64,000 nucleotides of DNA from Eledone cirrhosa (taxonomy: Eukaryota), in assembly GCA_964016885.1 (NCBI GenBank), contig OZ024741.1:193626001-193690000 (forward strand), given 5' to 3'. The notes beneath the pieces are model-generated. The model saw only the letters and a list, made by a program, of their open reading frames with translations. It ran no database searches and was not told where the DNA came from. This document shows, in pieces, positions 371 to 54,037 of the stretch. Numbering within the stretch: the first letter of the stretch is position 1; every line of letters begins with the position of its first letter. Position numbers and translations under genes: made by a program.

Positions 371-1064
371 GTCCTTTATATAAACAGATATAATTTTATC
401 ATATATATGTTTGTATATATATAGCGAAATCTATCCACACACTGTGACATCTAACAGGTTCTTAAGTCTGTTGAACAGGAACCTTCCTACGGTAAACACG
501 GCAGAGTTTTGCTCTGGTCTCCAACTAGAGATGCATTTTTTTGTCTACCCATCAAACCATTAGCAAGATGTTGTCTTAGGCAAAAATACACCTTGGGCCT
601 GCCTGTGGGCAGGGCCACAAGAAATAACAGCCAGCCACCTTTATAAGGCAAGTTACCTTGTATCGCTGCACACACGATTTCTTCATACCCACACATACCT
701 CACACATTTTCTCCATGTACATAGTTCTCCTTGTTTGTTGTTCATGATTTTCAACTGTAACAAATGATAATTTAAGTGTTTCTGTAACAAAATGTTAATT
801 AATAAATAATATATAAATGTTGCGGAAATTTTCGTTTTTCTATAACCATGGCAGTGTGATCGGATAAAATCACTTTCCCCATGATATTAAACACATTCGC
901 TTTCCACAGATATTCACATTGGTTAACTATCACGACTTCGTGTTTGATCACCACCATAATGCTGGATTGATACAACTAACGTGGAGTGCTCTTACCTTCT
1001 TATGCCTGTTTATCAACAAGATGTCCCAATTCAACTCTTATAGATAAATAACACGGTAATTAGA

Positions 1065-1085
<21 letters not shown>

Positions 1086-1103
<18 letters not shown>

Positions 1104-1676
1104 GTTGTGTTCTGGAGAGGAGATTGCGTTGGCATGGACATGTGATGCATATGAAGGACAACTGTATAAAAAGGTGCAGAGCAATCAAAATTGAAGGAAG
1201 CTATGGAGTGGGTAGACCAAGGAAAACCTGGGACAAGGTGATAAAAACTGACCTTGCTCACTTACACCTCTCTAAGACAATGTCACTGGATTGAGATCTT
1301 TGGCGATATGCAGTTGTACAGAAGACTCGCCTTCCTTTGCATACAAACTTAAACCTACAGTCAGCAGGCACCTCTTAACCCAATATACACCCCACTCTAC
1401 GCCCCCTACTCTATCCTCCCATTTCCATCCACTGTAAAGTCGTCATGTCGGTGAAACAACAAAAAGCGTCCACACTGTAAAGTGGTCATGTAGGAGACAT
1501 GGTAAAAAGTTCCCAGTCCACACTGTAAATATGGTTTATGTTAGGAAGAGCATCCAGCCATAGAAAACCTGCCAGAGACGAGTGAGACACAGTCTCCTAA
1601 TTAATCCCAAATCAAGTGGAACAAAACCGTCTAACCCATGCTAGCGTGGGAGATGGATGTTAAACGATGATGATAT
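1086..1676 (+). mobile_element. RTE LINE 3' fragment with 3'UTR and (GAT)n tail
   Basis: Matches 58920-59543 (RPRKTWD region, taggaagagcatccagc, gttaaacgatgatgat tail). Confidence 0.8.
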
Positions 1677-3115
1677 ATCATCATCATCGTTTAACGTCTA
1701 TCTTCCACGCTAGCATGGGTTAGACAGGAGTTGTCCAACTTCAGGCAAGATTGGTCGGGTGACTATGTCTCGCTCGTATAGGACTATCTGGCAGGTTTTC
1801 TACGGCTGGATGCCCTTCCTAACACCAACCACATTTACAGAGTGGACTGGGAACTTTTCACCGTGTTACCTACAGTGTGAACTGTGTGTTTTTTTTTGTC
1901 GTGACACCTACACAATCTCATTTACTTTGGACTGGATGTTGTAGTACCAACATAACTTTATAGAGAAAGGGTGTTGTTGGCTGGAGTGGGAGGATGGAGT
2001 GTTGTGGTGGGTTAGGGGTGTGTTTGGTTTGGAGGTGCCTACTGACTGTAGGTTAACTTTGCACGTAGGGAAGGCAGGTCTTCTGTAATACTGCGTGTCG
2101 CCAAAGATCTCACTCCAGTGAGATTGTCTTAGAGAGGTGCAAGTGTGCAAGGTCGGACTTTATCATGTTGTCCCACGTTTTTCTGGGTCTACCTACTCTG
2201 TAACTTCCCTCAATTATGATCGCGCTGCACTTTTTTATACAGCTGTCGTCTTTCATGCGCATCACATGACCATACCAACATAATCTTCTCTCGAGTAAAC
2301 AGCATCTGATCCCTCTTATTCCTAATTTCTCACTTAGTTCATTTATGTTTTGCCGGTTGTGTATATTACTATTACACATCCAAAGGAACATGCATGCTTT
2401 GTTCCTTTCCAGTCTGCGCAGGTCCTCTGCACACAATGCCCATGTCTCACTGCCATGTAACATTGCTGTTCATATACAGGCATCATACAATCTGCCTTTC
2501 ATTTTCAGAGAGAAACCTTTGTGGCCAACAGCGGTATAAGCTCTCTGAACTTTTTCCTTCCCGTTCTAACTCTGGCTACTGCACTTTCAGAACACCCACC
2601 ACCACTGCTGATTTTGTCAACCAGGTAACGGAAAGTGTCCACTATTTCTATGGAACCATCTGGGCAGTAGAAGGAGCTAGTATCTTGTGGGCACTTGCTA
2701 CTTATTGCACCTGATCCCATATAAAATCTATGTTCTTAGATAGCTTGCCTGTGATCCCACTACATCTTTTATGTACCCATAATTTGCATTTGGGACATAA
2801 AATGGAGTTTCTGCCTACTCCTTTCCTACATACTGAGCATGGCCATTTCCCAGAGGGCACCTGTGCCCTATTTTCCTTTCTACATACTAGAACTTTAGTC
2901 TTAGACAAGTTAACTTTAAGGCCTTTTGATTCTAGGCTATGCTTCCATGTTTGGAATTTCTTCTCTAGTTCAGCCATAGATTCAGCTATGAGCATTAGAT
3001 CATCTGCATATGGAAGTTCTCGTGGGCAGCCAGTCTTAAACTCCTCGGTTATAGCCTGAAAGCCAATAATAAACAGGAGGGGGTTAAGGACAGAGCCTTG
3101 ATGAACACCAACTTA
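1677..3115 (-). mobile_element. 5'-truncated RTE LINE (RT C-terminal half, 3'UTR, tail)
   Basis: ORF pieces 2702-2995, 2505-2720 and 2110-2463 are highly similar to 57183-59150; tail-to-tail with the preceding copy. Confidence 0.9.
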
Positions 3116-3280
3116 TGCACAATATGGATGGTGAGGTTACCTCTTTAGTCACCAACAGCCCAACGAACAATTATTATCGTTATTATTATTTTTGTTGTTG
3201 TTATTATTACTATCATTATATATGTTGACCCTTGAGGCTAATAAAGAACTTATTATTACCATTATATATTTAGGATAGCC

Positions 3281-3485
3281 AATTGGCAGAATTGATAGAG
3301 CATCAGAGAGAATTCCTTTGTGGTATTTGTTCTGGCTCTTTACGTTCTGAGTTAAGTTTTGCCCTTCATCCTTACAGGGTTGATATATCAAATTTCAATA
3401 AAGCACTGGTGTCAATTTAATTGACTTTCCCCTTGCTTTCAAATCACTGGCATTGTGCCAAAATTAGAAACAATTATTATTATTT
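3281..3485 (+). mobile_element. Degenerate tRNA-derived SINE (family A)
   Basis: ttgcccttcatccttacagggttgata core and tgtgccaaaattagaaacaattattatt tail shared with 26440-26630. Confidence 0.6.
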
Positions 3486-3544
3486 TATTTCCTCAGGGTT
3501 TCATTGTTTTACTGACAGTATTTGGATTGATAGATACCAAGCTG

Positions 3545-3900
3545 TCTCCTGCAATCTTAGGTATCTAATGTTGTGCCAAGCAAACATGCTTTCTAAAGAG
3601 TCATGAAATTCGCCTTTATATCTAACATCTTCAACCAACTATTCAAACTTCTTGCCTTATTACAATTGGGATGATAACAACTTTGAGGTAATTGCAGATT
3701 CTCTGCATTTCATCTTCTAGCTCATGGTACTTTAATATTTTCCTGCATTCTAGTAAGAAACATCAATTGGGCAACACACACTTTCCTTTTTATTGAATAT
3801 AACAAAGTCTGTGCATGAACACTCCATTTGTCTATCCATTTGTCAATTTTCATGTCCCATGGTACTTTTCAGGGACACTATTTTGCATGCTCAAATTCAA
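3545..3900 (-). mobile_element. Decayed restriction-like endonuclease domain of an R4/NeSL-like non-LTR retrotransposon
   Basis: Frameshifted minus translation: PWDMKID..FVIFNKKESVCCPIDVS..KILKYHELEDEMQRI..KVVIIPIVI..KACLLGT. Confidence 0.55.
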
Positions 3901-3929
3901 ATAACTATGTTGGAATAACCACCATATAA

Positions 3930-4140
3930 TAATTGTTTCTATGTTTAACTCAAGGCCATCAATTTTCAGGGGATGGAAAAGTCGAAATTATCAACCCCAG
4001 TGCATTACTGGTACTTTATTTTATCAATCTCGTAAGGATGAAAGGCAAAGCTAATCTCGGCAGGATTTGAACTCAGAACATAAAGGGCTGCAGCTATATG
4101 CTGCAAAACATGTTGTCCAACGCTCTACTGACACTACCAT
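3930..4140 (-). mobile_element. tRNA-derived SINE (family A)
   Basis: Reverse complement of the family A core (actggtactttattttatc..taaggatgaaaggcaaag..ggatttgaactcag). Confidence 0.75.
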
Positions 4141-4490
4141 AATAATACAATATAATGCTGGTATAGTTAAAAAGCATCTTAACATTTTGGACACTAGTCC
4201 TTCATTGGAAGATAGAAAAAGACGGAAAAGGGGATGTTTGAGAGAGCAAAGAAAAGGAAAACAGATGAGAGTAAAAAATAAAATGGAGAAAGGGTGGGTA
4301 GGAGAGAGAGCACGTGTTTTTGTAAATGAATCATCCTGAAAAAAAAAAATATATATATATATGTATGAGAATTTCGTATTTCTAAAGAAATATGGTATGT
4401 TTACAGGTAAACATTTAGAAAGCCGTAGCTATAAAAAACACTGGGGCTAACGCCCTCTCGTGGTGTCTAGTAGAAGCAAGGGGGACAATT

Positions 4491-4528
4491 GTTAATGCAT
4501 TTCAAACTTAACTGGTTCTCATCAGGCC
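4491..4528 (-). ncRNA. Type I hammerhead ribozyme motif (degenerate stem I)
   Basis: Minus: ggc-CTGATGA-gaac cagttaa gttt-GAAA-tgca-TT-aac. Confidence 0.55.
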
Positions 4529-4628
4529 GAACCCTCCCACACTTGCAACTGCTGGACTTGAAAACAGGCGAGAAAACCATGTATTCTCGCCTGTTTTCAA
4601 ATCCAGCAGTCCAAGTGTGGACGGGTTC

Positions 4629-4666
4629 GTCCTGATGAGAACCAGTTAAGTTCGAAATGCATTGAC
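4629..4666 (+). ncRNA. Minimal type I hammerhead ribozyme motif
   Basis: gtc-CTGATGA-gaac cagttaa gttc-GAAA-tgca-TT-gac: stem I gtc/gac, stem II 4 bp, palindromic stem III ATGCAT. Confidence 0.8.
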
Positions 4667-5379
4667 AATTGTCCCTCTACTTCTGCTGGACACCACCAGA
4701 GGGCGTTAGCCCCAGTGTTTTGCACAGATACAGCTTTCTAAATGTTAACCTGTAAACATACCGTATTTCTTTAAAAATACGAAATTCTAATACATATCTA
4801 ATACATACAGCTATGCATGAAGCTAAATCCTAATCTTATTCAATATATATATATATATAAAAATGTAAGTCCAAAGAATCATTAGATAAAATATATACAG
4901 TATTTCCTCTCCAAATCAGTATAAATTAACCACACAAAAAATCATTTAAACGAGGCTATAAGTTTAAAATATACTTCTAACTTCAATTGTGTACCTAATT
5001 CTGTGTAGTTAACTATTTGTCTTGTCAATTTCTACAGGCTAGGAGAAATACTAGGTAAGTGTCATATAGCTGTGTCATATACACCGTGAATGGTTGCCAA
5101 ACGCATATATGTATTTATGACTTTGTCTAATTTATATATATATACCCTTTGAATTTAATATATATATATAGTACATGTATATTTGTTTGCTATTTCTAGT
5201 AGCTTGTGACAATGTCTTATGAGTATGTGTATAAGTTTTCTTTGCAGCTACATGGAAAAAGTTTGATTCCACAGTGTGACACCATGGACTTTTACTTATA
5301 CTAGATATCAGGTCGACTATCATGTGAATGAAATTTGGTAGACAGAAACTGTGTGAAACTGTCCAACTGAATGTTCCTT

Positions 5380-5845
5380 TCAAAGTCAGATGTCACCAGC
5401 TTATGTTCTGAATGAGTCGAAGTAGGCAATTGTAGGTGCCATCAAGGCGCTTTTGTTGTTTGGATGAAGCGTCCATGTTTCACTTCCATATAGCAAGATT
5501 GGTTGAATTGTTACTTGGAAGAGTCTAATTTTAATGTGGCTGGAAAGATTTGAGTGCCAAACTCGATTCATTTTGTTGCAAGCTGACCACGTAAAAGGAG
5601 AGAAAGATTTGCTGACCACTGCCATTGTGCCACTTATGAGGCTGTGTCCCCATTAATGCTTTGGAAACCACAAGCAGTCACTAATATCAGGGGGCACAAG
5701 CTCTCCTATCCCGATGTCATCTCCAGAGATTCTGGTATTGAAATCCAGGACTTGACAACGGCAATGAATGACAGATGAATGTGGAGATCAATTGTTGAGT
5801 CGATTTTGGCTGAGGCCGCCTGATGATGATGATGATGATGATGAT
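5380..5845. mobile_element. RTE LINE 3' fragment (second family) with an inverted 5' part
   Basis: 5380-5590 minus encodes WSACNKMNRVWHSNL..PILLYGSETWTL; 5590-5845 plus encodes RFADHC..DLTTAMNDR..AEAA* followed by (TGA)n. Confidence 0.7.
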
Positions 5846-6084
5846 GAATGTTCCTGTTCTTGGGTTCTAGATTTAATCTATCACATGGTTTAACAGAACT
5901 GTGAGCATTTTTGGAGCACTTTATCAGAGTCCACTTAGAATAAGTTGATGATAAGTTTTTCAATTCTTACCACCTATTTTGCAGACATAAAAAAGGGTAA
6001 TGGACCATTAAAACAATCAATGATTCTCTGTATACATACTATAAGAGTGAAAAATAAGACAATAAACTTTCTCTATACACTCAC

Positions 6085-6201
6085 CTCATCTTCATCAAAG
6101 TCCAGAACAACATCTTCTTCCACAAGACGTTTTGTAGGTAGATCATCACGAGGAAACATATATTCCCAACAACTGCCATCAGCCAGATTGTACTTCATGT
6201 T
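6085..6201 (-). CDS. DRC7: DRC7 coding exon 7
   Basis: cag|NMKYNLADGSCWEYMFPRDDLPTKRLVEEDVVLDFDEDE|gtgagt; 117 nt, phase 0; resembles the DRC7 FDLGDPVRWEYML segment as recalled. Confidence 0.85.
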
Positions 6202-6288
6202 CTGCAAGAATTTTGCATTTCATATTTTATATAAATATTTAATATATGTCACTTGGTGTGTATAGTATATGTGTGGGTATAATATATA

Positions 6289-6486
6289 TGAGGGTGGGCT
6301 GAAAAGTTCATAGGTTGACTATGAAAGAGTGATGCTAGAACTGTGAAATCTTGCATGCATTAATTTCAACTCTTCTTATTAATAACTGCATTGTTTCTTT
6401 CCAAGAACTATATTGAAAAATAAACCTCATTTGGTCATTCCATAAGAGTATCTTGGTCAGCCTATGAACTTTTCAGCCGACCCTCA
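6289..6486. mobile_element. Tc1/mariner-type MITE
   Basis: About 30 bp TIRs tgagggtgggctgaaaagttcataggttgac / gtcagcctatgaacttttcagccgaccctca, flanked by TA. Confidence 0.85.
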
Positions 6487-6502
6487 TATATATGTGTGTG
6501 AC

Positions 6503-9500
6503 ATCATCATAATCATCATCATCATCATTTAACATCTATCTTCCATGCTATCATGGGTTAGATAGGTTTGTCCCACTTGAGGCAAGTTGGGTCGGGTGAC
6601 TGTGTCTCTCTCGTATAGGACTGTTTCTGGCTGGTTTTCTACAACTAGATGCCCTTCCTAACACCAACCACATTTACAGTGTGTGCTGGGTGCTTTTTGC
6701 CATGTCTCCTACACAACCACTTTACTGGGTGCTTTTTGTTGTGTCACCTACATGACCACTTTATAGTGTGGGCTGGATGTTTTGTAGTACAAACATAACT
6801 TTACAGAGTAAGTGTGGTGTGGGTCGATGTGGGGGGAGGTGTATGGGTGTGGCGTGGGTCAAGGTGGGTGAGGTGTAGGGGTGTGGGGTGTGGGGTGCCT
6901 ACTGAGTATAAGTTTAAGTTTGTGCGCAAGGGAAGGCGGGATTTCTGTATTATTGTATAGTGCCAAAGATCTCAAACCTGTGTCATTGTCTTAGAGAGGT
7001 TCAAGTGTGCAAGGTCAGCTTTCATCACCTTGTCCCAAGTCTTTCTGGGTCTACCTACTCCATAGCTTCCATCAATTTTGATAGCTCTGCTGTCGTCCTT
7101 TATACACATCAGATGACCATACCAATGCACTCCCCTCTCTAGTAAACTGCATGTGATCCCTCTTACGCCTAATTTCTCACTTAATTTGTTTATACTTTGC
7201 TGTTTTTGTATATTACTATAACATATCCCTGGGATCATGCAAGCTTCGTTTCTTTCAAATATGTGCAGATCCTCTGCACACAATGCCCATGTCTCACTAC
7301 CCTGTAACATTGCTGTTCAAATACAAGCATCATACAATCTGCCTTTCGTTTTTAGAGAGAAACTTTTTGTGGCCAACAGTGTTATTAGCTCTCTGAACCT
7401 TTTCCATCCCATTCTTACTCTGGCTAGTGTACTTTCAGAACACCCTCCTCCACTTCTGATTTTGTCAGGTAATGGAAAGTGTCTACTATTTCTATAGAGC
7501 CATCTGGGAAGTTGCTACTTACTGCACCTGAGCATCGGCCACATATAAAACCTATATTCTTTGATAGCTTGCCTGTGATACCACTACATCTTTTATGTAC
7601 CCATAGCTTGCAGTTGGGACATGGAATGGAATTTCTGCCTACTCCTTTCCTGCACACTGAGCATTGCCATTTCCCAAGGGGAACCTATGCCCTATTTTCC
7701 TTTCTACATACTAAAACTTTAGTCTTAGACAAGTTAACTTTTGATTCTAGGCCATGCTTCCGGGTTTGGAATTTCTTCTCTATAGATCAGCTATGAGAGT
7801 TTGATCATCTCCATATAGAAGTTCCCATGGGCAGCCAGTCTTAAACTCCTCGGTTATAGTCTGTAAGGCAATAATAAACAGGAGAGGGCTAATCACAGAG
7901 CTTTGGTAAACACCTACTTTTACACTAAATTCTTCCCTATATTCATGGTTAATTTTACCTTTGCTGACTATTTCTCAATACATGGCTTGTATAGCTTTCA
8001 CAAGCCACTCATCTACTCCTAGTTTTCCAAGAGCCCACCAGATAATGGAACGGGGGTCTCTGTCAAAGGCTTTCTCCAAGTCAACAAAAGCTAAGTAGAG
8101 GGGTTTACTGTTAGCTAGATACTTCTCCTGTAGTTGCCATATAAGGAAGAGAGCATATGTGGTACTTTTACTTGGTACAAACCCAAACTGCATTTCATCT
8201 AGATCAGTTCGGTCCCTAATCAGCTGTGACCTTCATGACCTGGTCAACTAACTTAAAGCCACTATAGTTTTCTCTATCTAGAGCATCTCCTTTGCCCTTG
8301 TAGCAGTTAACGATGATGCTGCTATGCCAGTCATTTGGTATGACGCCATTCTGTATTACTTGGTTTATTATCCGCATGACCATGGTTTGCCCTACCATTC
8401 CAGATGCTTTCAACATCTCAGCAACTAGCCCCAAAGGCCCAGCTGCCTTGCCTGTCTTCATATCTTTGATTGCCTTACTTACTATACTATCACTAACTTG
8501 CACAGCTTGTCCTTCTGTTGGATTAACTTAGGGCAAACTATCTTTATCCCATTCATTCTCCTCATTTAGTAGTCTCTCGTAGTGGCACTTCCAAGCTACC
8601 TTCTTATCACTACCAGTGAGGGCAAGCACACCATCATCATTATGGACACACATTACCTCGCAATACTGAACACCTCATGTCTTTGGTCCTCACGTTGTAG
8701 AACATGTTTGAACTTTCTATCCTCTGCTTCCCATCTTGCAAAGTACACTTGTCGCCTAGCTTCTCTCCTAGCTACCTGATAGTGTTCTCTACTTCCCCCA
8801 TCCCGCCATTCTTTCCATGCATGCCTTTTGGCGTTAATTGTCTCCTCCACCTAACTGTTCCACCACCAAGTTACTCTCCACCTCCTTAAAGGTCTGCTTT
8901 AGCCACAGATATCATCTGTCGCCTTCAACAGGTTAACTTTCAGGAATTCCCACTGCTCCTCTATATTATACATCTCTAATTACTGTCAAAAGCATCAAGT
9001 AATATGCTTTTAAATTTTTTACTGGCTGTGGGGTCCTTCAACTTCCGCATTCTTCTCCTTAAGGTTGTCCTCTGTCGTTGAGTTCATCTAGCACTGACTA
9101 TTAGGTTTACAACAGACACTCTGTCTTGTCTTCTAGTATGGATAAAATCTATCTGGCTGGTGTGCTCCCCTGATCTATAGATGATTAAGTGATTGTCTCA
9201 TTTTTTAAAGTTTGTGTTACAGATAGTTAGGTTATTTGCATCACAGAATTCCAGGATCCTGAAGCCTTCCCCATTTCTAGTACCAAACCCATAACCTCCA
9301 TGGATCCCATCATAGCCATCATAATGTTGTCCAACAAGCCCATTAAGGTCGCCAGCAATAATTATGTAGTCAATGTCGGTTATTTGGGAAGTAGTGAACA
9401 TTAGCGACTCATAGATCCTGTCTTTTAAAACATCAAGTAGGCCAGATTGGGGTGCATAAGCGGATATAATTGACACAGTTGTTCTCTTTAGAACTAGTCT

Positions 9501-9960
9501 AATTTTAATGATTCTGTTGTTCACTCTGTTTACAGCAATTATCTTATCTACCCATTTTTCTGCTAACATAATTCCTACTCCACCCAGCCTGTTGTCATTT
9601 CCCATCCAGAAATGTTTATAGCATCATTTTTACCCACAATGAATCTAGCAAACCCACCTCTCCACTTAGTCTCTTGAACCCAGCAAACACCAACTTCCCT
9701 ACTTTCAAGCATCTCTACAACCACATTTGATCAACCTTTCAATGTGCCTACATTCATGGTATCAACTCTGAAGTTTTGAAGTTCGCTGGGAGGGAGGAAG
9801 GAATGGAATGGGGGCTCAAGGAGGAGAGTGGGAGTTAGATTTGTGTTGGCCTTGGTCTTCCATGCCTGAAATAAAGGGGGGGGGGTGTTTTCGTGCTCGT
9901 CCAGAGACAGAAGGTGAATTCATCTTTGTCATTGTCATTGTGAGTGCTCTGACTCTCCAT
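6503..9960 (-). mobile_element. Near full-length but degraded RTE LINE (APE + RT)
   Basis: Colinear ORF fragments 9198-9605 (APE: SAYAPQ, GDLNG), 8216-8503, 7975-8193 (FVDLEKAFD), 7424-7657, 6972-7310; ATC tail near 6503-6528. Confidence 0.92.
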
Positions 9961-10360
9961 CTCTGTAGTCCATTCATCATACAGAACAACAACCAGGTCT
10001 ATGCTTAAGGAGCCGAAGTGGTGGCTTTGTGATAGGGATTCATGTTAGAAACCTTACTATAAACCACTGAGTTTTGATGGACCAAATAACTACGGTGGTG
10101 TGTGGCAATGGGTGACTTCAGGGGATGAAGCATGATATTTTCAATCGTGAGAAATAATAAATGATAACAATAAATATGAACAAAATGAAATCAGACTAAA
10201 AGGGGGCTTTAGGACAAATATTTCAAACGAAAAAATGAAAGATAAACAAATATGACAAAATGAACTAGACAGAGAAAGAGAGAGAGATAATGTACAGGGA
10301 TTGCAGATAAACCTCAGGCTGACAGAAGGGTAGAATGAATCCAGAAAGATCTATACGAAT

Positions 10361-10404
<44 letters not shown>

Positions 10405-10547
10405 CGTATAGCACGGAGCATATGTGCATAAACACACATGCACCGTGTTGTATTATGACAGTATTGTGTTAGCTCAATGTACAAGAACAGAGTCGTTATA
10501 TGTAAAATAAACCAAAGAACACTTACATACTCAAACAGTTTTTATTT

Positions 10548-10592
10548 GCTTACAATGTTTCATCCATACCGTTTGGTAGGATTCCTCAGAGC
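10548..10592 (-). ncRNA. Type I hammerhead ribozyme motif
   Basis: Minus: gct-CTGAGGA-atcctacc aaac ggtatggat-GAAA-cattg-TA-agc; stem II 8 bp with one bulge; GUA triplet. Confidence 0.8.
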
Positions 10593-10750
10593 TTAATAAA
10601 CACAGTGCTGAGTATAAGCTCCACAAAGCCTAGTCACACGAACAATCGGAATGCAATAGAGGGTAAATCTCCCTATCTTTACCCTCTATTGCATTCCGAT
10701 TGTTTGTGACTAGGCTTTGTGGAGCTTATACTCAACACTGTGTTTATTAA

Positions 10751-10795
10751 GCTCTGAGGATTCCTACCAAACGGTATGGATGAAACATTGTAAGC
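10751..10795 (+). ncRNA. Type I hammerhead ribozyme motif
   Basis: gct-CTGAGGA-ttcctacc aaac ggtatggat-GAAA-cattg-TA-agc; one mismatch at the base of stem II. Confidence 0.75.
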
Positions 10796-10838
10796 AAATA
10801 AAAACTGTTTGAGTATGTAAGTGTTCTTCGGATTATTT

Positions 10839-10870
<32 letters not shown>

Positions 10871-11869
10871 CTTGCAGGTACATAATGAATGAGAGAGTGG
10901 GGGGAAAGAAATGGGTGACTTTAGGAGATGAAGCATGATATTTTCAATTGTGGGAAATAATAAATGTGTATATGTATATATCATCATCATCATCGTTTTA
11001 ACATCCCCTTGTCTTGCTGTTAAGGGTTGGGCAGGTCTACATAGGCCAAATCAGTACTGAAGTGGGGCTAGAGATCTCCCAAACAGGCCAGAGATTTGCA
11101 TTTTGTTTATGGACAGTCTCATGTTCTACCAATTGCACAGGAGAGGTTGTCATGTCTTTGACACAACTGAGAGCCCCCAAGCATTTGTTTGGCAAGTTTT
11201 ATATGGCTGGATGTCCTTCCGATCACCAATCACTTCAGAGCATGTACTGGATGCATCTATTGTGTAGATCACAAACACTAGAGAAGTTACTATACTGTGG
11301 AATGACTGAAGGGACCTCATGACTCCCCCCCCCCTTTTTTTTTCTTCTCTCTCATGGAGATGAGAGCACTCAATGCTGGAAATGTGTGGTGTAGTGATGT
11401 TGAGAATAGCTAAGGAGTGATAGTGGAGGAGTGGGGCATAGGTGGGGTGCAGGGAGAAGTTACTAGAGTGTGATAGTGAGGGTTTTAGTGTCTAAGGGTT
11501 TTAGGGGGGAAGAAAACAAAAGCTTAGTGATGAATACATGAGGGGGCATGTAATGATGGTGAGGATAACTGCTAGGGAGTGCTAATGGAAGAGGCATGGG
11601 TGGGGTGTATAAGAGTGAGTAGAGTGGCTTCTAGAGTATGATAGTGAGGGAGTCTATAGACTTTTAAAGGGTCATCAGTTAGGAGTGTGTGGGGGTGACA
11701 GGGGGCTGTAATGATGTTGAGAATAGCTGTTAGTAAGTGCTAGTGGAAGGGGATGGGTTAGGCCACATTGTATGCTGCAGGTCAGACCTTCTAAAGTTAG
11801 AAGGCTCAGCCAAATTCCCCTAACTGCAGTTTCAAGGACCAAGAACGGTACTGACCATCTCATTAGATT

Positions 11870-14451
11870 ATAGTGGCCCATAAACCACAGACAAAATCCC
11901 ACTCAACACAGACCAAATACAACCAACTACAGCAGAAGAAACATACCCAACCACCGCAACATAGGTATCCACAAAAATATCTCCTACAGAAACCAACCCC
12001 AAAACAACATAGAACTAACCCGCAACATAAACACCATATACCTCAGAAGAAATCCACCCAGAATACATGAAATCCCAACAAAACCTTCCCACATTAACAA
12101 CTACAACAGATATCACCCGCAACACTACAAAAAATAACCCCATAACATCAACACTATTTATTCCAGAAAGAATCTCCCTAGACCACATGAACCCATAACA
12201 GAACCCTTACACAATAACAACTACAACATCACCACATTAACTCTCATAAAAAAAAAAACTACAGATCCATACAAAACAGACAAGCAGACTACAATTACAC
12301 CCAAAATAACATTCCTTTTTTAAAAAAATAGACTGAAATACCAGGACACCTGATAATTAACCTTTCAAAGATATCACTATCTAACACACAAATTAACATA
12401 TTAAGCAAGAGACTGAAATTTACACTCACACCACAAAAATCTAACTTCCCCTAAATGAAAGATGACATTATGGAATTCTGCCAAAAACGTATACTAGTAG
12501 AATACTTCTCCAATGACACCAACACTGAAGACAAATCAATAATCAGAAACAAAAGTGATTTCTGCCCACAGAAAAGAAGGAACACAGCACTGGAAACCTA
12601 CTGCAAACACACCATCAACTTTCCCTATGAAAAAATTGCAAATAAACACACAAAATCAAACCTCTGAAAACACAAATGGAAAGAATTATTTGCACTTCAA
12701 GATAACACTGAAATAACCACCAAAGAAGTCGATAAAGGGAGTACTGTGATCATTATGGACACTGACTACCATAGGGACCTGGTACTTAAAATCTTAGATG
12801 ACAACAAATACTACAAAAAAAAGAAAACTGCAAACAAGTTAAAACAATGGGGGAATCTCCTAGCATTACTACAAAAATATCGCAATAGCCTAGCCACAAA
12901 AGAATTTGAATACATAAGCCTTAAAACTCAGGCCAATTATAGCAGGCCCAGCATGTGAAACCCACAGAGTTAGTAACTTCCTGGGCATCCTACTAAAGCC
13001 CTTCCTAAAACATATATAGAGCTACATACGATATGATCTTGATATGCTGAACCACCTACCCAAAACAGTAAGTGAAAACACTATTCTTGTCTCATTTGTC
13101 GTAGTAAACCTTTACACTAACATGCCGCACAACTATGGAATAACGGGAATCCAGTACTGGCTAGACACACACCAATCTGAAATGCCAACACATATCAACA
13201 AAAACTTTATTATTGATGGACTCTGATTTATGTTACAGAATAATTATTTTACTTTCAATGGTTCGTCATACCAATAAATCTCAGGTACTGCAATGAGCAC
13301 AAAAGTAGCCCGACATATGCCAACTTAGTCATGGGATTCCACGAACAACAAATTGACAACCAATCCCTTCTATTATTTGGAGACTCTTTCCTTACATATC
13401 TCAAAAATAATTGGAAGAGATACCTAGACAATTAATATGAATACACTCACTGTTTTCAAAAATATGATAAACAACATTAACAATAACATACAATTCACAA
13501 TGGAATCCAACTCCAAAGAATTAGCCTTCTTGGATATCTTTATTTTAAAAACAGATGGGAAAATAGAAACAGACATCTTTTATAAACCCACGGACTCCAA
13601 ACAGTACCTCCTCTTCACATCAAGTCACCCAAAACATACAAAACTTATCATTCCTTTTAACTTAGCCAAACGTATATGCACCATAATATCAGGCCCAACT
13701 AAACGGGAACAAAGACTAAATGAACTAAAAAACACACATACCTTAAGAGCTTTCCCACTTGACATAATTAATAACGGAATAGACAGAGCAAAACACACAA
13801 ATGTTCATCAACTTAACAATCGAAAGCACAGAACCATGAACTATATCTTACCATATGTATCCACGTTCAACCCCAGAAACACCGAAATGTTCGACCTTCT
13901 ACACAAAAACCTCCCCATTCTATTTAAATATTAAAAAAATGAAAAAAAATCCTAGAAACACACAAGATCATTAAAAATAAAAGGCAACCCAAATCACTAA
14001 AACACATTCTCAGTGGAACAAATATACACAAACCAATCTCCAGCCTTACGGTAACAAAATGCGGAAGAACAAACTGTAGCACATGCCTATACTTAATTGA
14101 AGAACAAAATTTCACATTTAAAGATGGCCAAACTTTCACAGTGAAAAACAACTTCACTTGCAACTCAGAGAACCTGATCTACATATTCACATGCGGTGGG
14201 TGTTGACATAACTACATAGGATAGACAGGTGGGTCGTTATGTAAAATAATGACCATTGATCGCCAACAAATCTGAGACGTAAACACAAGAAAAATCCTTT
14301 TATGTAGCCACATTGCAGATTGTGCAGGAATGACCCTACCCAACTTTAAAATCTTCCCCCTTTATAAGTGCTCAGATTCTTTCACTCAACAACAAAGAAT
14401 AAATAAAGAAAAATTATTTCTTAACAAATTTAAACCAAAATTAAATATGTA
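11870..14451 (+). mobile_element. Decayed Penelope-like element (RT + Cys linker + GIY-YIG), Neptune-like
   Basis: Fragments GLKF-like/TLTP, DKGSTVIIMD, SFVVVNLYTNMP, GTAMS, FLDIFI..TDIFYKPTD..QYL..SSHP, KCGRTNCSTC, NLIYIFTC..C..NYIG.TG, FKPKLN*; many frameshifts; 5' boundary approximate. Confidence 0.9.
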
Positions 14452-14981
14452 ATCACCCCCATTTGATTATTCATAAGGACCTATTGATTAAGTACATACA
14501 CATATACAGAAAGATTGATACATTTGCACACATACATGCATGTGTATATATGTATAAATATATACGCACAAATATACACTCTCTCTCTCTCACACACACA
14601 CCATAAAATAAAAAAGAAATTATTCATACACATATTTTCCAAAAATAATCTCTCTCCTAATTCCTGATTGAAAACCATCACTAATACTATACTCTGTTTT
14701 TTTAATTACCCAGCACAAAAAGACCTGTGACAAACAAACAAACTAAAATACACACACACCACTACAAAAGCAAATATATATATATATATATTGTTTTATT
14801 TGGGGAGGGTCATATTGTTATAATATTGCCAGAAATAATAATAAAACACACTCACTGTTTGGTTTGGATTGGTTTTCGCTTCTGTATATTTTATATCTCT
14901 ATAGTTAATTTAGTTGGCAATAAATGTTTATTATTGATTGATCAACAGTTAAAAATATAGATATAAATATATATGTATAGT

Positions 14982-15027
14982 CTATCAAAGTTCTTTCATC
15001 ACACACCTGTGACATCATCAGTGGTAC
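14982..15027 (-). ncRNA. Type I hammerhead-like motif
   Basis: Minus: gtacca-CTGATGA-t-gtcac aggtgt gtgat-GAAA-gaac-TT-tgatag. Confidence 0.6.
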
Positions 15028-15094
15028 TATTATGTTTCCTCCCGTTGTATTGTAATGAAGTAGACATTACAATACAACGGGGGGAAACATAATA

Positions 15095-15140
15095 GTATAA
15101 CTGATGATGTCACAGGTGTGTGATGAAAGAACTTTGATAC
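15095..15140 (+). ncRNA. Type I hammerhead-like motif
   Basis: gtataa-CTGATGA-t-gtcac aggtgt gtgat-GAAA-gaac-TT-tgatac; consensus of the two arms restores stem I gtatca/tgatac; extra U after A9. Confidence 0.6.
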
Positions 15141-15527
15141 ACTATACATATATATTTATATTTATATTTTTATATCTATATATTTATATCATATATATAT
15201 CATATATATATATATGTGTGTGTGTGTGTTATGTATTTCCGTAGAAAAGGAAAAGGAAAGAAGAGTGCTCTATGTATAGTACAGAGCTATTTGATTACAT
15301 AATAAACAACACAGTCAGGAAACTAAACAATACTATGATCTGATCAGCATACTGAACATTTCTGTTAGAATCGTCTAATTTCCTGAAACCTTTGGTAATG
15401 GAATAATTATATTGTGTTGTTTATTATGTAAATAAAAAAAAAATATATATATATATATAGCGATCCTTTGCTTAAACTTTAATCTGTTCTTATAATAAAT
15501 ATATATATATATATATATAAAATATAT

Positions 15528-15602
<75 letters not shown>

Positions 15603-15607
<5 letters not shown>

Positions 15608-16072
15608 CTCCAAGACAATGTCACTGGACCGAGATCTTTGGCGATACACAGTAATACAGAAGACCCGCCTTGCCTAAGTACAAAGTGAAAGCTACTACAG
15701 TCAGTAGTCACCTCTAACAAAAATACACCCTGGCCCCACTACCCCCACCCCATCCACACCACCCCTTCCAATGTAAAGTTATGTTGGTACCACAGCATCC
15801 AGTCCGAAACAAATGAGGGCGTGTAGGTGTCACAACAAAAAAACACACAGTCCACGCTGTAATGTGGCCTTGTAGGTAACACAGTAAAAACCTCCCAGTC
15901 AACACTGTAAACGTGGTTGGTGTTAGGAAGGGCATCCAGCCGTAAAAAAAAAACGCCAGACAGTCCTATATGAACAAGACAACCAATCTTGCCTCAAGTG
16001 GGAAAATTCCCATCCAAACCCATGCTAGCGTGGAAGATGGACGTTAAACGATGATGATGATGATGATGATGA
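15603..16072 (+). mobile_element. RTE 3' end fragment inserted in (TA)n
   Basis: Matches 59076-59543 including the (GAT)n tail. Confidence 0.85.
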
Positions 16073-16077
16073 TATAT

Positions 16078-16137
<60 letters not shown>

Positions 16138-16311
16138 GAAAATAGAGAAATTAATGTAAGCAAAATGCCAACAATAATTCAAACATATAAGTGACTATAC
16201 CATCAAGATGAAAAAATGTTTAATGTAAGTTGGGGGAAAATCAGTACAATCTTAACTCAAAATAAAATCAAGAAGAAATACTTAACCGTCAATTTGGGGA
16301 AAACTACAAAT

Positions 16312-16391
16312 GCACTATATAGTCTTAAAAGACTATTTCACGAAACTTTTCAGTAGGGTTAGTCACAGTTGGAATCGATCTTCAGTAGTGC
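16312..16391 (-). ncRNA. Type I hammerhead ribozyme motif
   Basis: Minus: gcacta-CTGAAGA-(39 nt, weak stem II cga/tcg)-GAAA-tagtct ttta agacta-TA-tagtgc; stem I 6 bp, stem III 7 bp. Confidence 0.75.
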
Positions 16392-16422
16392 TCAACACAA
16401 TATATATATATATATATATACA

Positions 16423-16475
<53 letters not shown>

Positions 16476-16552
16476 AATAAAATATAGAGTTATTAACTCA
16501 TATTGATACCCTGCAATTAACAAGTTCAAAGTATAAATACTGAGCATTATGA

Positions 16553-16868
16553 TATTAATATGTGTAGAAGTAAACACAGTAAATTCTGCGTCTAAAATTA
16601 CGAGGGTAGATTTCACCACAAATGTTATATATAATTTAAACTGAAACATACAGCATGTTACAAGATTTCTTATAAGATTTCCTATACATACCGTATCAAT
16701 AACGAGAGATGAAATCGTTATTGATACGGTATGTATAGGAAATCTTATAAGAAATCTTGTAACATGTTGTATGTTTCAATTTAAATTATATATAACATTT
16801 GTGGTGAAATCTACCCTCGTAATTTTAGACGCGGAATTCACTGTGTTTACTTCTATACATATTAATAT
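16553..16868. repeat. Fold-back palindrome, arms about 150 bp, in (TA)n context
   Basis: Inverted arms around spacer gagatgaaa near 16705-16713; produces mirrored ORFs 16392-16649(-) and 16771-17007(+). Confidence 0.95.
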
Positions 16869-16967
16869 ATATATATATACGTGTGTGTGTGTATCATCAT
16901 CATCACCATCATCATCATTTTACGTCCACTTTTCCCTGCTTTTCCCTGTATATATATATATATATAT

Positions 16968-17002
<35 letters not shown>

Positions 17003-17009
<7 letters not shown>

Positions 17010-17338
17010 CAGGAAAGAAGAGTGACACGGTTTGCTATACAAAAAAGGTTTTCAATCTCATTGCTGACAATTGGTTCTCTGAACTGGTAGGTCTAGAGAT
17101 CGCTACCCACTTGCTTTCACGTCATTCGATCACCAATACAAAGTTGTAACCAGTCAATTCATTGGAGCTTGTGAGAATGATGAATTGACTGGTTACAACT
17201 TTGTATTGGTGATCGAATGACGTGAAAACAAGCGGGTAGCGATCTCTAGACCTACCAGTTCAGAGAACCAATTGTCACCAATGAGATTGAAAACCTTTTT
17301 TGTATAGCAAACCGTGTCACTCTTCTTTCCTGATTTAT
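17003..17338. repeat. Fold-back palindrome, arms about 160 bp; right arm extends about 170 bp unpaired to the next (TA)n
   Basis: Inverted arms around ggagcttgtgag near 17164-17175; mirrored ORFs KSGKKSDTVCYTKK on both strands. Confidence 0.95.
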
Positions 17339-17906
17339 CATTACTCCAAGTGTTTACAACATAGAAATTACAGCGTACTCGCAGCATCACTATGGAAACG
17401 CCTTGTTGACTCAAACTTAGCCAAGCGTTGATATCATCCACTACTCGGAGTACCATAACTGGACTACACTTAAGTGGACTACCTATAACAATAATCTGTT
17501 ACCCTGTATATATATATCATCATCATCATCATCATCATCAGGTTTAGCGTCCGTGTTCCACGCTTGCATTGGGTTATATATATATATAGGCATACAGAGC
17601 TAAACACCAGTTTAATAATAAAGAAGTTATAATACTAAATCTGTCCAGATTTTTTTATTACTTTCAAAATTATCGAAAAATCATAAACAATGTTTTTAAT
17701 TAGAAATATGCAAATGAGAAGGTTAAATAAAGATAGGTTAGATCATATGATCCACTACATCTGATAAACAAAAATATGAGATGGTCATGGCTGGAATACC
17801 TTTTCATCATATTTCTGTTAGTTCAGGCTTAAACTAGGGCAATACAACAACAACAACAGTTATAACGCATTGTTAGAGGTTAATAAATACACAATTGAAT
17901 ACTAAC

Positions 17907-18125
17907 TGAAATTCCCTCGGAGCAATCCTGCATATTAACCCAGTAGTTCTGATGGTTCCACACTGATTCTATGCCAAGGTAGTTGTCTGTATTCAGTGGC
18001 TCTGCCTCACCAGTGAATGGTTCGATGAAAAAACTCTCACCCACTTCCCGTATCCCTGCCAACACCAATACCCAACTGTGGACTCGCATTCCACACATCA
18101 TGTCATCTGGGGGTTCTTCAAGTTT
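17907..18125 (-). CDS. DRC7: DRC7 coding exon 6
   Basis: cag|KLEEPPDDMMCGMRVHSWVLVLAGIREVGESFFIEPFTG..YLGIESVWNHQNYWVNMQDCSEGIS|gttagt; 219 nt; hallmark DRC7 motifs. Confidence 0.95.
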
Positions 18126-18142
18126 CTGTCAACAACAAATAC

Positions 18143-25361: not shown

Positions 25362-26244
25362 TTAGTGATTTGATGCAAGGGAAATAACTTTAATCTAAGA
25401 GTTGTCTTTCTTCAGTAAAATATGTCGCTAGCATTACTGGAGTAGAGCTAGAATACATATTATAATAGTCGTTTTCTGTTGTTGCTGTTGTTATTACTGT
25501 TGTTATTGTTGTTATTGTTGCTGTTTTTGTTGTTTAACCCCCAAATGATACTGACTGAATAAACCTTTTGTCAGAAGTGATACAGCTGTGACTATTCAGA
25601 ACACATTAGCCAGTGTGACCTTGGCTTTTAAGATTTCAGGAAGATTTCGCCGCTAATTCCAGCAAACACTATGACCACTTAGAGCAATGGTTCTCAACTG
25701 GAGTTCATATAAGAATTCTGAAGTGCCAGAAGATAAAAAATAGTAAATTGGGGCTCCCCAGTAGTATTTTAAGGGTTCATGAAAAAATTTTGCTGGGGTT
25801 CTCCTCTCTTCAGAGAGGTGCATCCTCGTGAGGTGGAGAGAATATTTTTCTAATCTCCTAAATCCGATTACAACAGCATCTTCTGATGTACGCGAGGTGC
25901 ATCTGGGAGCTGTGACTAATCTCTGAGGCTGAAGTCACAAGAGTAGTTAAAGGTCATATTAAGAACGAAAACAAATTTTGTTTTTTTAATTTTTGGCAAA
26001 GCCGACCATAAAGTCGCTCAGTATGCAAATGAGGCTGTATACATTTAAGAATACTATGTATTCTCCACAGTTCCAGTGGCTAGCAGCGAAGAGAACATAC
26101 AATCTTGATAAGGAGCAAAACATTCCGAAACAATTGTCGATTGTTTTCTCTCAGCTACCACTGGAACAAAAGGATGGCGTTGGCCATCTAACACATGGTG
26201 TTTATGGAGCTGTTTGCTTGCAAACAAACTAAATATTAATAATT

Positions 26245-26630
26245 GTTTTTAGTTTTGGCACAAGGCCAGCAATTATTCCAGTGCATTACTGGTACTTTAT
26301 TTTTTCGACCCTGTAAGGATGAAAGGCAAAGTTAACCTCGGCTGGATTTGAACTCAGAATGGAAAGACTCTATGTGTCAAAGCATGGCATCCGACCCTCT
26401 ACCGATACTGCCAATCCACCATTAATAATATTATCATATGGTGGATTGACAGTATCGGTAGAGGGTCGGACGCCATGCTTTGGTGCATAGAGTTACGGCC
26501 CTTGCCATTCTGAGTTCAAATCCCCCCCGAGGTTAACTTTGCCTTTCATCCTTACGGGTTTGATAAAATAAAGTACCAGTAATGCACTGGGTATTTGCTG
26601 GCCTTGTGCCAAAAGTAGAAACAATTATTA
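26245..26630. mobile_element. Two family A SINEs head-to-head (26245-26420 minus, 26440-26630 plus)
   Basis: Both have A-box-like ggcagtatcggtagag, B-box-like gagttcaaatcc, core and tail. Confidence 0.88.
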
Positions 26631-26655
26631 TCATATTATTATTATTCACTCACGA

Positions 26656-28766: not shown

Positions 28767-29273
28767 ATGTATATGTATATGTGTATATATATATGTATAT
28801 GTGTATGTGTGTGTGTATGCATGTATATATGTGTGTATGGGTATGTATGTGTATGTGTGTGTATACATATATGTGTATGTGTATATATACGTGCGCATAT
28901 GTATAGAGCTTTTTGTTTTTGTGTTTGTATGTATGCATGCATATATGTGTGTATATACCCTCTTTTTTATATGTGTGTGTGTGTATTTGTGTGTACATAT
29001 TTGAATGCATATATATTTGTGTAAATGTATGTGTATGTATTTATGTGCCTGTTCGTATTTCCATGTAGACGCAAATACGCTTATGTGAGAAAGTATACGT
29101 CTACGTACTATTACGTATATGCGCGTGGTTGAGTGTGTGTATGTTTATGTTCTGAATATTTTTTATATATTTTTTCCCCTATTTCCTTTTTGCCCGTTTT
29201 TTCAGCCTCACTTTCATATTTCCTAAATTTTGTTTTCAAATCCATATTTAATAAAAACACCATGTTATTTATG

Positions 29274-29330
29274 CATTCTGACGACTGAAGACAGACATAA
29301 CATCTACCTTCAAGAAACCACTGGTAAATG
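29274..29330 (+). ncRNA. Type I hammerhead ribozyme motif
   Basis: catt-CTGACGA-ctgaag..cttcaa-GAAA-ccactgg-TA-aatg; stem I catt/aatg, GUA triplet, near-palindromic stem III. Confidence 0.75.
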
Positions 29331-29508
29331 AAATAATTATCTTATGTTGTTTATTACATAACTAATAAGCTCTGTAACCTACATAGAGCACTCTTTTTTT
29401 CTGTACCTTTCCAACGGAAATACTTCATTTATATATATATATATATATATATGATATGCATTTTCTTATTCTCTCTCTCTCTATATATATATATAACGAG
29501 AGAGAGAG

Positions 29509-29551
<43 letters not shown>

Positions 29552-29615
29552 TGAGAGAGAGTGAGAATAAGAAAATGCAAAGTAGTTTCAGATGTTAAAG
29601 TCCTTTATTGATAAG

Positions 29616-29688
29616 GCTGTGATACATATTTCGATCACGACTGGCCACACGATTCCACATACCCAGTGCCATGATCTCATCAGACAGC
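29616..29688 (-). ncRNA. Type I hammerhead ribozyme motif
   Basis: Minus: gctgt-CTGATGA-gatcatg..actgg..ccagt.cgtgatc-GAAA-tatgta-TC-acagc, then AATAAA; stem I 5 bp, long stem II, AUC triplet. Confidence 0.85.
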
Positions 29689-29874
29689 TTCTTAAGGTCA
29701 CGTACCCAGTGCCATGATCTCATCAGACAGCTTCTTAAGGTCACGTACCCAGTGCCATGATCTCATCAGACAGCTTCTTAAGGTCACGTACCCAGTGCCA
29801 TGATCTCATCAGACAGCTTCTTAAGGTCATGTACCCAGTGCCAAGATCTCATCAGACAGCTTCTTAAGGTTACG
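29660..29874. repeat. 43-bp tandem repeat, 5 copies
   Basis: Unit tacccagtgccatgatctcatcagacagcttcttaaggtcacg. Confidence 0.97.
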
Positions 29875-30626: not shown

Positions 30627-31000
30627 TCCTTATCATCTCATTTCTACAGCTGAGTAAACTGGAGCAATGTGAAATAAAGTGTCTTGCTCAAGGAAACAAC
30701 ACATCACCCGTTCAATTCTCAGACCGGGTGATGTGTTGTTTCCTTGAGCAAGACACTTTATTTCACATTGCTCCAGTTTACTCAGCTGTAGAAATGAGAT
30801 GATAAGGACTCGGGTCTCTATCATTCCACTGCAAAGTGGTCGTGGAGGTGCCACGGCAAAAAAGCACCCAGCACTCACTGTAAATGAGGTTGGTGTTAGG
30901 AAGGGCATCCAGCTGTAGAAATCAAGCCAGAATCAGTTCCCGTCCCACCCTTGCAAGCAGGGAAAAGCGGACGTAAAATGAAATGATGATGAAATGATGA
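30627..31000 (+). mobile_element. 5'-truncated SINE family B (RTE tail) with an inverted duplication at its 5' end
   Basis: 30711-31000 matches the reverse complement of 55080-55367; 30627-30710 is a perfect inverted copy of about 30725-30808. Confidence 0.88.
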
Positions 31001-34740: not shown

Positions 34741-35444
34741 TGAGTAACTAATCAATTCATCGGCTAGTTTAGTAACCGAGTGGTTGTTCAATTGTTAATT
34801 GTCGAAGCCCTTTCGTTACACGTTCTGTAACATCCTCAATGACTATTTTTCTTACTCTGTATCCACCCCTTGTATCATTTTATTTTTGAGAAGACAAGAT
34901 GAAGTAAACTGATAAAACGAAAACGAGTTACTTCGAACAGTTAGGCTTGTATGATTTCGGCAGTAAAGTCGTTGCTAAGAACACCTTCACGGTATGTTAT
35001 TGTTATTTTGGTTTTATGTGATGGACGATCTCAGATAAGGTATGATTTTTTCACACACCTCCCCACCTTTTTTTTTTAAATCTTAATTTTTAGACTTTTT
35101 AAAATCTAATTCAGTTAATGATTTCTATCATATGTTATCCATGGATTTAAAAAATGTTATTTTTTTATTTATTTTATTCCATTTTTTTTTAAAAAAACAT
35201 CGCAGCAATATATTTTGCCTTACAAAGTTATTACTACAGAAATCTTATAACAAAAAAAAAAACCTTTTATATTAAAAAAAACTTTTTTTTTGTCATGAAA
35301 ATACTAAAATTATAAATAGCGAACCGAAATGTTTATTTCCTCCAATTAAAGTCGAGTTTATTATTTACTGCTGTACTTTTAACAATGTCTGCTATCATAT
35401 AATACACGTGGGTTGAAACTAAATATTGAAGTTACAGAAGAAAT

Positions 35445-53949: not shown

Positions 53950-53958
<9 letters not shown>

Positions 53959-54037
53959 TAAAATAACAGATTAAAGTTTAAGCAAAGAATCGCTGCTTTT
54001 CTTTGCTTAAACTTTAATCAGTTATTTTAATAAATAT
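53950..54037. repeat. Palindrome, arms about 39 bp, next to a long (TA)n
   Basis: atttattaaaataacagattaaagtttaagcaaagaa / ttctttgcttaaactttaatcagttattttaataaat; a single arm recurs at 15459-15500. Confidence 0.9.

Follow-up and report, generated by a model that had tools for sequence, protein, structure and literature searches.

A head-to-head pair of repeats with predicted hammerheads in a DRC7 intron of Eledone cirrhosa, the probable remnant of a PLE-type insertion

An intron of the DRC7 gene of the octopod Eledone cirrhosa holds a palindrome with a hammerhead motif on each arm, which raises the question whether this is a recently inserted and still active unit, as an earlier note on this DNA had proposed, or a remnant, and how the two arms came to face each other. 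The palindrome was analysed within a window of 64,000 nucleotides (contig OZ024741.1, positions 193,626,001 to 193,690,000 of the forward strand), and all coordinates below are those of the window. In our reading, the fold-back is an ordinary remnant of a Penelope-like element (PLE), a new family member of an anatomy that has already been described. With a probability of about three in four, what was inserted is the 3' repeat (pLTR) with hammerhead of a PLE family, or a non-autonomous derivative mobilised by the proteins of PLEs, and the insertion was non-coding and dead on arrival.

Self-alignment of the locus gave two arms, 10497-10667 and 10678-10846, with 165 matches, 4 mismatches (at 10511, 10514, 10582 and 10608 in left-arm numbering) and one 2-bp gap (10639-10640), separated by a loop of 10 nt (10668-10677), so that the near-identical arms and the 10-nt spacer of the earlier note were borne out. 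The minus strand of the fold-back is predicted to form a single hairpin of -322 kcal/mol (z = -36.6). On the left, an unpaired extension reaching (TA)n had been put at about 100 bp; it comprises 95 bp (10402-10496), does not pair with the right arm and stops at (TA)n. On the right, the arm terminates in ACATATA and merges into a second array, and the fold-back is thus flanked by (TA)n on both sides. DRC7 lies on the minus strand, and tblastn placed the fold-back between the exon matches 18125-17907 and 6207-6085; the exon at 17904-18128 is 90% identical to DRC7 of Octopus vulgaris and O. sinensis and 86% to that of Argonauta. The minus copy is sense to DRC7, as had been stated, while its assignment to intron 6 may be too low: the fold-back follows the sixth DRC7 exon match in the window, and residues 1-61 of the reference were without match, so that the true intron number may be higher. 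A 57-bp direct repeat (10107-10163 and 10910-10966), found nowhere else in the window, brackets the fold-back; it was rejected as a target duplication due to its identity of 93% and its distance of 200 and 40 bp from the (TA)n arrays. The features of the locus are the following:

6208..17906, minus strand: DRC7 host intron, with approximate bounds from flanking exon matches (tblastn with octopod DRC7 proteins)
10363..10401, no strand: left (TA)n target array (sequence)
10402..10496, minus strand: tail, a 3' extension of family sequence that the minus-sense copy has and the right arm lacks (unpaired; covered by contigs with 4-7 differences)
10497..10667, minus strand: left arm, 5'-truncated family copy, sense to DRC7 (alignment and reads)
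10523..10619, minus strand: predicted type I hammerhead of the minus copy with extended helix I (motif and fold)
10668..10677, plus strand: loop of 10 nt, made of the family sequence that adjoins the right (tail-less) copy (loose ends in reads)
10678..10846, plus strand: right arm, a family copy with truncated 5' end, which stops at an internal ACATATA and passes there into (TA)n (sequence and alignment)
10724..10820, plus strand: predicted type I hammerhead of the plus copy (motif, reads and fold)
10842..10870, no strand: right (TA)n target array, whose first bases are common to the arm end (sequence)

Each arm carries one hammerhead motif, and both motifs read outward. The CUGAGGA cores start at 10754 (plus) and 10589 (minus), 165 bp apart on opposite strands, and are followed by stem II, GAAA and a GUA triplet. 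In the plus copy, the core (10754-10760) precedes a family-type U and the predicted cut falls after the A at 10792; in the minus copy, the core occupies 10589-10583, GAAA lies at 10561-10558 and the predicted cut falls after the A at 10551. The stem II of 8 bp reported earlier applies to the minus copy, where it contains a bulged U, but not to the plus copy, which has 7 bp and a U.U at the core. Helix III consists of 2 bp with an odd-palindromic loop, i.e. it is of the dimer type, and the predicted intermolecular duplex amounts to -3.7 kcal/mol. Helix I is about 25 bp long with bulges and, according to the fold prediction, AAUAAA pairs with UUUAUU inside it instead of following directly after stem I, as the earlier note had it. 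CUGANGA, GAAA and NUH together with helices I, II and III, the hallmarks of a type I hammerhead, are present in both copies with all core nucleotides intact, so that, as motifs, the twin CUGAGGA hammerheads with GUA triplet hold. A hammerhead grammar matched three times in the window (both arms and 29278) compared to a mean of 0.03 in 30 dinucleotide-shuffled windows, and in 0 of 2000 shuffled arms. The G10.1-C11.1 pair closing helix II, which is typical but not obligatory, is absent from both copies, where U.U (plus) and A-U (minus) stand in its place. In Rfam, nothing matched at the gathering threshold; with E allowed up to 10, the only matches were generic hairpins below the cut-off, which were rejected, and no hammerhead family was among them.

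Some further motifs were observed in passing. A splice-donor-like GTAAGT lies about 25 nt beyond the predicted cut of each copy, at 10817-10822 (plus) and 10526-10521 (minus), and in the family the final letter of this motif is a minority state; introns are known from the terminal repeats of PLEs. The third grammar match is a solo hammerhead-like motif with odd-palindromic helix III on the plus strand (29260-29335), and a core-like match at 29683 on the minus strand (about 29600-29700) adjoins a 43-bp tandem repeat.

In order to place the arms in a family, sequencing reads were compared with 10402-10700 at 80% likeness in four runs (X1, X2, X4 and X5) of six, where X1 and X2 are contigs from one sample and X4 and X5 are RAD reads from two other samples; word shares of 0.46-0.65 in X1-X3 were set aside as evidence. 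Matching contigs numbered 348 of 17,142,217 in X1 and 320 of 16,517,967 in X2, and 41 of the 348 in X1 were at least 99% alike to the locus. The summed depth in X1, which is not a copy number and in which read seeding favours conserved words, was approximately 1,400-2,000 over the distal tail (about 900-4900 across the tail), 5,000-10,000 for a large part of the arm, rising to as much as 26,000 at the 3' half of the hammerhead; the single contigs listed had depths of 7-16. These data indicate a family of hundreds of copies or more and support the mobile, multi-copy, PLE-like unit that had been proposed, in that other genomic copies exist in both contig sets. The tail is family sequence as well, being spanned by contigs with 4-7 differences. 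RAD reads were about 1250 deep on the hammerhead compared to 90-250 elsewhere, and about 91% of them continue in sequence unlike the locus. Since the RAD reads pile up there and mostly run on unlike the locus, other, diverged families appear to share the hammerhead motif.

Variation within the family was not spread evenly over the motif. Inside the 47-nt hammerhead, 12 variable sites avoid all 11 core positions (P 0.024) and all 21 positions of the core and of the helix I and helix III arms (P 0.0002), in a test that rests on 40 of the 94 variant rows and is weakened by the seeding bias toward conserved words. Instead, the sites fall on N7, N17 (the cleavage nucleotide), loop II, stem II, bulges of helix I and the unpaired centre of the helix III palindrome. 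About 82% of the summed depth reads CUGAUGA, and CUGAGGA is a minority state common to both arms. At 10582, about 94% of the summed depth has the letter of the plus copy. The minus copy is indeed without stem mismatch, but this is no sign of preserved function: its mismatch-free stem II is a derived or minority change, which could still improve folding, and it is the plus copy that has the majority letter. In total, the arms share eight minority letters (10508, 10521, 10574, 10577, 10585, 10622, 10625 and 10630), of which 10574 is near 50:50 and those at 10508 and 10521 account for at most 5% of the family depth.

The reads also identify the loop. Summed depth drops from about 10,000 (10612-10621) to about 780 (10662-10671), as expected from variable 5' truncation, with an edge effect being possible. 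Behind 10667, loose ends in 11 contigs of X1 and 13 of X2 begin with GATAGGGAGA, the reverse complement of the loop, and continue beyond it; the same motif is found in loose ends of 116 and 144 RAD reads of X4 and X5, respectively. The upstream family sequence visible in loose ends is limited to 30 nt, and this upstream motif is absent from the 64-kb window. Because family contigs run on past 10667, the loop can be identified as the 10 nt of family sequence that follow there, and it is continuous with the right arm; the spacer of the earlier note thus keeps its length of 10 nt but is family sequence rather than a foreign linker. The fold-back is a fusion of two 5'-truncated copies, head to head, with breakpoints 10 nt apart, and the copies are joined with at most 1 nt of microhomology. 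Among the joints listed for the 668 contigs, none changes strand, and 127 unlisted loose ends may hide short hairpin contigs; the listed contigs lend no support to other family copies being fold-backs.

These results bear on two rival explanations. Long inverted arms in a TA context would also be produced by a palindromic MITE or fold-back DNA transposon with a TA target duplication and a passenger hammerhead, and palindromic MITEs of similar size are described in frog (PMC5625713); we consider this very improbable, as the ends are asymmetric with a 95-bp extension on one side only, family sequence passes the centre in the 11 and 13 contigs while depth decays toward it, and variation avoids the ribozyme core. 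That the palindrome is a fold-back artefact of the assembly or library is hardly credible, given that the arms differ at five places, with the majority letter of the family on the right arm at 10582 and on the left arm at 10608, and that arm divergence among the fold-backs of the window ranges from 0 to 11%, which is not expected of chimeric reads. On the other hand, an artefact would account for the density of fold-backs in the window and for the fact that no listed contig or read of X1, X2, X4 and X5 spans the whole stretch, so that the locus-specific junction was not seen in the reads.

The anatomy of the fold-back was compared with that of described systems. Inverted pLTR pairs of PLEs are head to head with an optional one-sided tail (PMC3846280), and PLEs are reported to leave inverted 5'-truncated copies and to insert preferentially at (TA)n (PMC8557442). 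The DRC7-intron fold-back resembles such pairs of endonuclease-bearing (EN+) PLEs in its head-to-head layout, unequal 5' truncation, tail on one side, AT-rich or (TA)n target and the lack of a discernible target duplication (PMC3846280; PMC8557442), but differs from the pairs described there in having neither ORF nor direct pLTR between the arms, and in its tail of 95 bp compared to the described 30-40 bp. In truncated PLEs of Schistosoma mansoni, two hammerheads with palindromic helix III are found on opposite strands at a distance of 100-700 bp (PMC4209133). The motifs described here are like those hammerheads in being of type I, with a bulged helix II of 7-8 bp, an extra nucleotide after A9, a short palindromic helix III and an opposite-strand arrangement (here 165 bp apart), and unlike them in having U.U (family) or A-U (minus copy) in place of G10.1-C11.1 and a bulged helix I of about 25 bp (PMC4209133). 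PAc, a Poseidon element studied in vitro, has a tail between two start sites of reverse transcription and cuts both strands of AT-rich DNA, which is the mechanism inferred here; its hammerhead overlaps the start of the ORF, whereas no reading frame runs on from the hammerhead at our locus (PMC11167929).

Non-LTR retrozymes, which are thought to be mobilised by PLEs, are likewise non-coding, a few hundred bases long and equipped with a type I hammerhead (PMC7229834; bioRxiv 10.64898/2026.07.22.740005). They are, however, described as head-to-tail tandems active by two consecutive hammerhead units, whereas the DRC7-intron fold-back is inverted with one sense motif per strand, and retrozyme identity was rejected at this locus for lack of a tandem and of a second sense core on either strand. 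The palindromic Harbinger repeats of Xenopus tropicalis are similar in that about 200-400 bp fold on themselves into tight dsRNA without need of a partner (PMC5625713), but these belong to a DNA transposon with a palindromic consensus, while here the palindrome arises at insertion from a non-palindromic family. In summary, the traits of EN+ PLEs found at the locus are a dimer-type palindromic helix III, an inverted 5'-truncated copy with one-sided tail, insertion into (TA)n and a dispersed family. By analogy, the fold-back would behave as a solo inverted pLTR pair, for whose PLE membership only the link to a parent with RT and GIY-YIG is missing. A literature search, confined largely to the main texts of open papers, yielded no description of the family, of octopus fold-backs or of octopus PLE hammerheads.

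No autonomous parent was recognised in the window: the arm is without significant similarity to a neighbouring PLE or to six other local elements. The neighbouring PLE lies on the plus strand of the same DRC7 intron (about 11900-14450) and is a decayed, nearly full copy with RT, DKG motif, thumb, CxxxxCxxC linker and C-terminal GIY-YIG, interrupted by many stops and frameshifts; from the linker and from features of the clade, we tentatively take it to be Neptune-like. It was rejected as the parent, as its alignment to the arm was at shuffle level, and a 13-nt match to the arm at 14238-14250, within the endonuclease coding region, was treated as chance. Outside the genome, the 24-nt end of the hammerhead had 0 matches in metagenome contigs and a pattern scan of viral contigs gave 0; the lone relaxed-pattern match in metagenome contigs (L001) was rejected as chance, lacking a helix I complement and a 150-aa ORF. 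Other elements of the window, labelled from their translations, are presumably a Helitron-like helicase fragment (42517-42987, minus strand), a mariner-like element with 113-bp inverted ends (45066-45967) and a long RTE-type LINE (56066-59150) with further decayed copies at 1100-9600. An intronless frame of 403 codons (35430-36641, plus strand), located in a DRC7 intron on the opposite strand, resembles, as we assume, RMND1/DUF155. Against the reading as a PLE remnant stand the missing parent, the over-long tail, the absent G10.1-C11.1 pair and the lack of a strand-change joint among those listed.

If the PLE origin is granted, we see an even chance that the fold-back was made by priming from both target strands. 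The endonuclease/RT of a PLE would have cut both strands of (TA)n; reverse transcription would have started from one 3' end at the distal RNA site, so that the tail was copied, and from the other at the internal ACAUAUA via TA microhomology, without tail. Both cDNAs would have stopped early and then been joined end to end. Two cDNAs primed from opposite strands would yield the head-to-head layout, the one-sided tail and the loop on the tail-less arm. For PAc, cutting and extension of both strands at AT-rich DNA and two RT start sites that bound the tail are described (PMC11167929). In the parent element, the hammerhead would serve the dimer cleavage of tandem precursors.

A serious rival with the same origin, to which we assign an appreciable but minority share of the probability, is that first-strand cDNA snapped back and was self-copied until it met TA microhomology, followed by inversion of the loop through recombination between the arms or by loss of the tail from the right arm. 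Self-priming of this kind has been proposed (PMC3846280), and it would agree with the eight minority letters common to both arms, with the differing extensions of five fold-backs in the window, which measure between about 50 and 190 bp, and with the SINE fold-back at 30627, whose loop is on the long arm as a snap-back predicts. At the DRC7 locus, the loop is on the short, tail-less arm, so direct self-copying cannot have made the tail, and the fold prediction gave no stable DNA hairpin for the junction. The shared rare letters fit one arm having been copied from the other, and equally two RNAs of one small subfamily.

Whichever route produced this PLE-type remnant, its hammerheads are most likely silent at the DRC7 locus. 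In isolation, the hammerhead fold is predicted to lie just 2.8 kcal/mol above the minimum, whereas for the whole element the hairpin is favoured over the ribozyme fold by about 78 kcal/mol (-314.7 compared to -236.6 kcal/mol for the minus strand and -308.1 compared to -229.2 kcal/mol for the plus strand). Hammerheads of the PLE type are described as needing a dimer for cleavage (PMC4209133; PMC6765202). Each strand of the whole element holds one sense core only, so the two motifs cannot form the required dimer. In the DRC7 pre-mRNA, the antisense arm would be transcribed first and would lock the hammerhead into about 170 bp of duplex, which ADAR would be likely to accept as a substrate.

The age of the insertion was estimated from the divergence of the arms. 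With 4 substitutions in 169 bp and an octopod rate of 2.4e-9 per site per generation (PMC7656900), the arms are 4.9 million generations old (95% interval 1.3-12.6), assuming that they were identical at insertion; two templates would make the true age younger and gene conversion would make it older. The arms are more alike in two other fold-backs of the window, with 0 mismatches in 84 at 30627 and 3 in 159 at 17004. There is no ORF in the fold-back, and no reading frame continues from the hammerhead. The earlier proposal of a recently inserted, still active unit, which would be polymorphic and able to self-cleave or to seed copies, therefore found no support and we regard it as unlikely, considering the five differences between the arms, the closer-armed neighbours, the missing ORF and the single sense hammerhead per strand in its trap of about 78 kcal/mol. 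In its favour, the core nucleotides are intact in both copies, the isolated hammerhead is close to its minimum, arms from two RNAs would void divergence as a measure of age, and at least 99% likeness was reached by 41 of the 348 X1 contigs. Neither X1 nor X2 shows the locus letter at 10493, and likeness to the locus stays below 99% in all RAD reads of X4 and X5; both gaps would also fit absence of the insertion from individuals, but such gaps are expected anyway from partial coverage and filters. The fold-back is probably neither very recent nor active.

Ten short-loop fold-backs, two of them weak (27559 and 55516), were picked by hand from the self-comparison of the window, leaving out a pure TA run, four pairs whose arms lie far apart and the inversion at 1102-2305, which derives from an RTE element. 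Six of the ten end at most 2 nt from a (TA)4+ run, compared to 3.1% of random positions lying within 12 nt (P about 1e-5, with hand-set ends). They derive from unrelated sequences, as judged from five that were compared; hammerheads are borne by the one at 4356 and probably by that at 14950, and those at 26232 and 30627 are SINEs. Apart from the fold-back at 10402-10846, fold-backs of unrelated sequence lie at 4356-4800, 14950-15172, 16552-16868, 17004-17338 and 53950-54037, and in four of these five one arm ends at (TA)n while the other continues for 50-190 bp. The one at 4356 has twin hammerheads with palindromic helix III and an AUU triplet, and the one at 14950 a hammerhead-like pair. The SINE fold-back at 30627-30808 (0 mismatches in 84 bp) is the best local candidate for a recent insertion; its loop corresponds to the 14 nt that come next in the parent SINE copy (55160-55410) at 55354 and sits on the long arm, a polarity opposite to that of the fold-back at 10402-10846, where the loop belongs to the tail-less arm. 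At 26232-26637, two apparently full-length copies of a tRNA-type SINE form a head-to-head pair with an AT-rich spacer of 15 nt.

A tile count modelled on PMC5625713 found a near-perfect inverted partner for 125 of 5995 tiles, or 108 after removal of simple repeats; 99 of these 108 lie in fold-backs, 26 of them in the DRC7-intron fold-back (10402-10846). The same-strand control was higher (255 tiles, 144 non-simple), probably due to the tandem arrays of the window, and the window itself was selected. For octopus, a potential for near-perfect dsRNA of 4.4e-3 is reported, among the two highest of the species compared, and the passages concerned name the source repeats for frog only (Porath et al., PMC5625713). 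We put forward tentatively, as a conjecture that we would on balance not expect to hold in full, that a genome-wide octopod process lays down (TA)n retro-insertions from unrelated PLE families and SINEs as short-loop fold-backs, and that these are the main source of the high potential for near-perfect dsRNA and, with it, of non-coding ADAR hyper-editing. That fold-backs may be the main dsRNA source is a lead rather than a result.

The junction of the DRC7-intron fold-back records how PLEs make inverted copies, a point that the cited papers call unresolved. With its loop on the tail-less arm, it agrees less well with a simple snap-back than with priming from both target strands. Ownership of the loop can be counted across hundreds of copies. 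If the genome-wide process were true, the polarity of the loop relative to the tail would provide a genome-scale readout of two-strand priming versus snap-back, and the fold-backs are a concrete candidate source of the hyper-editing substrates of octopus.
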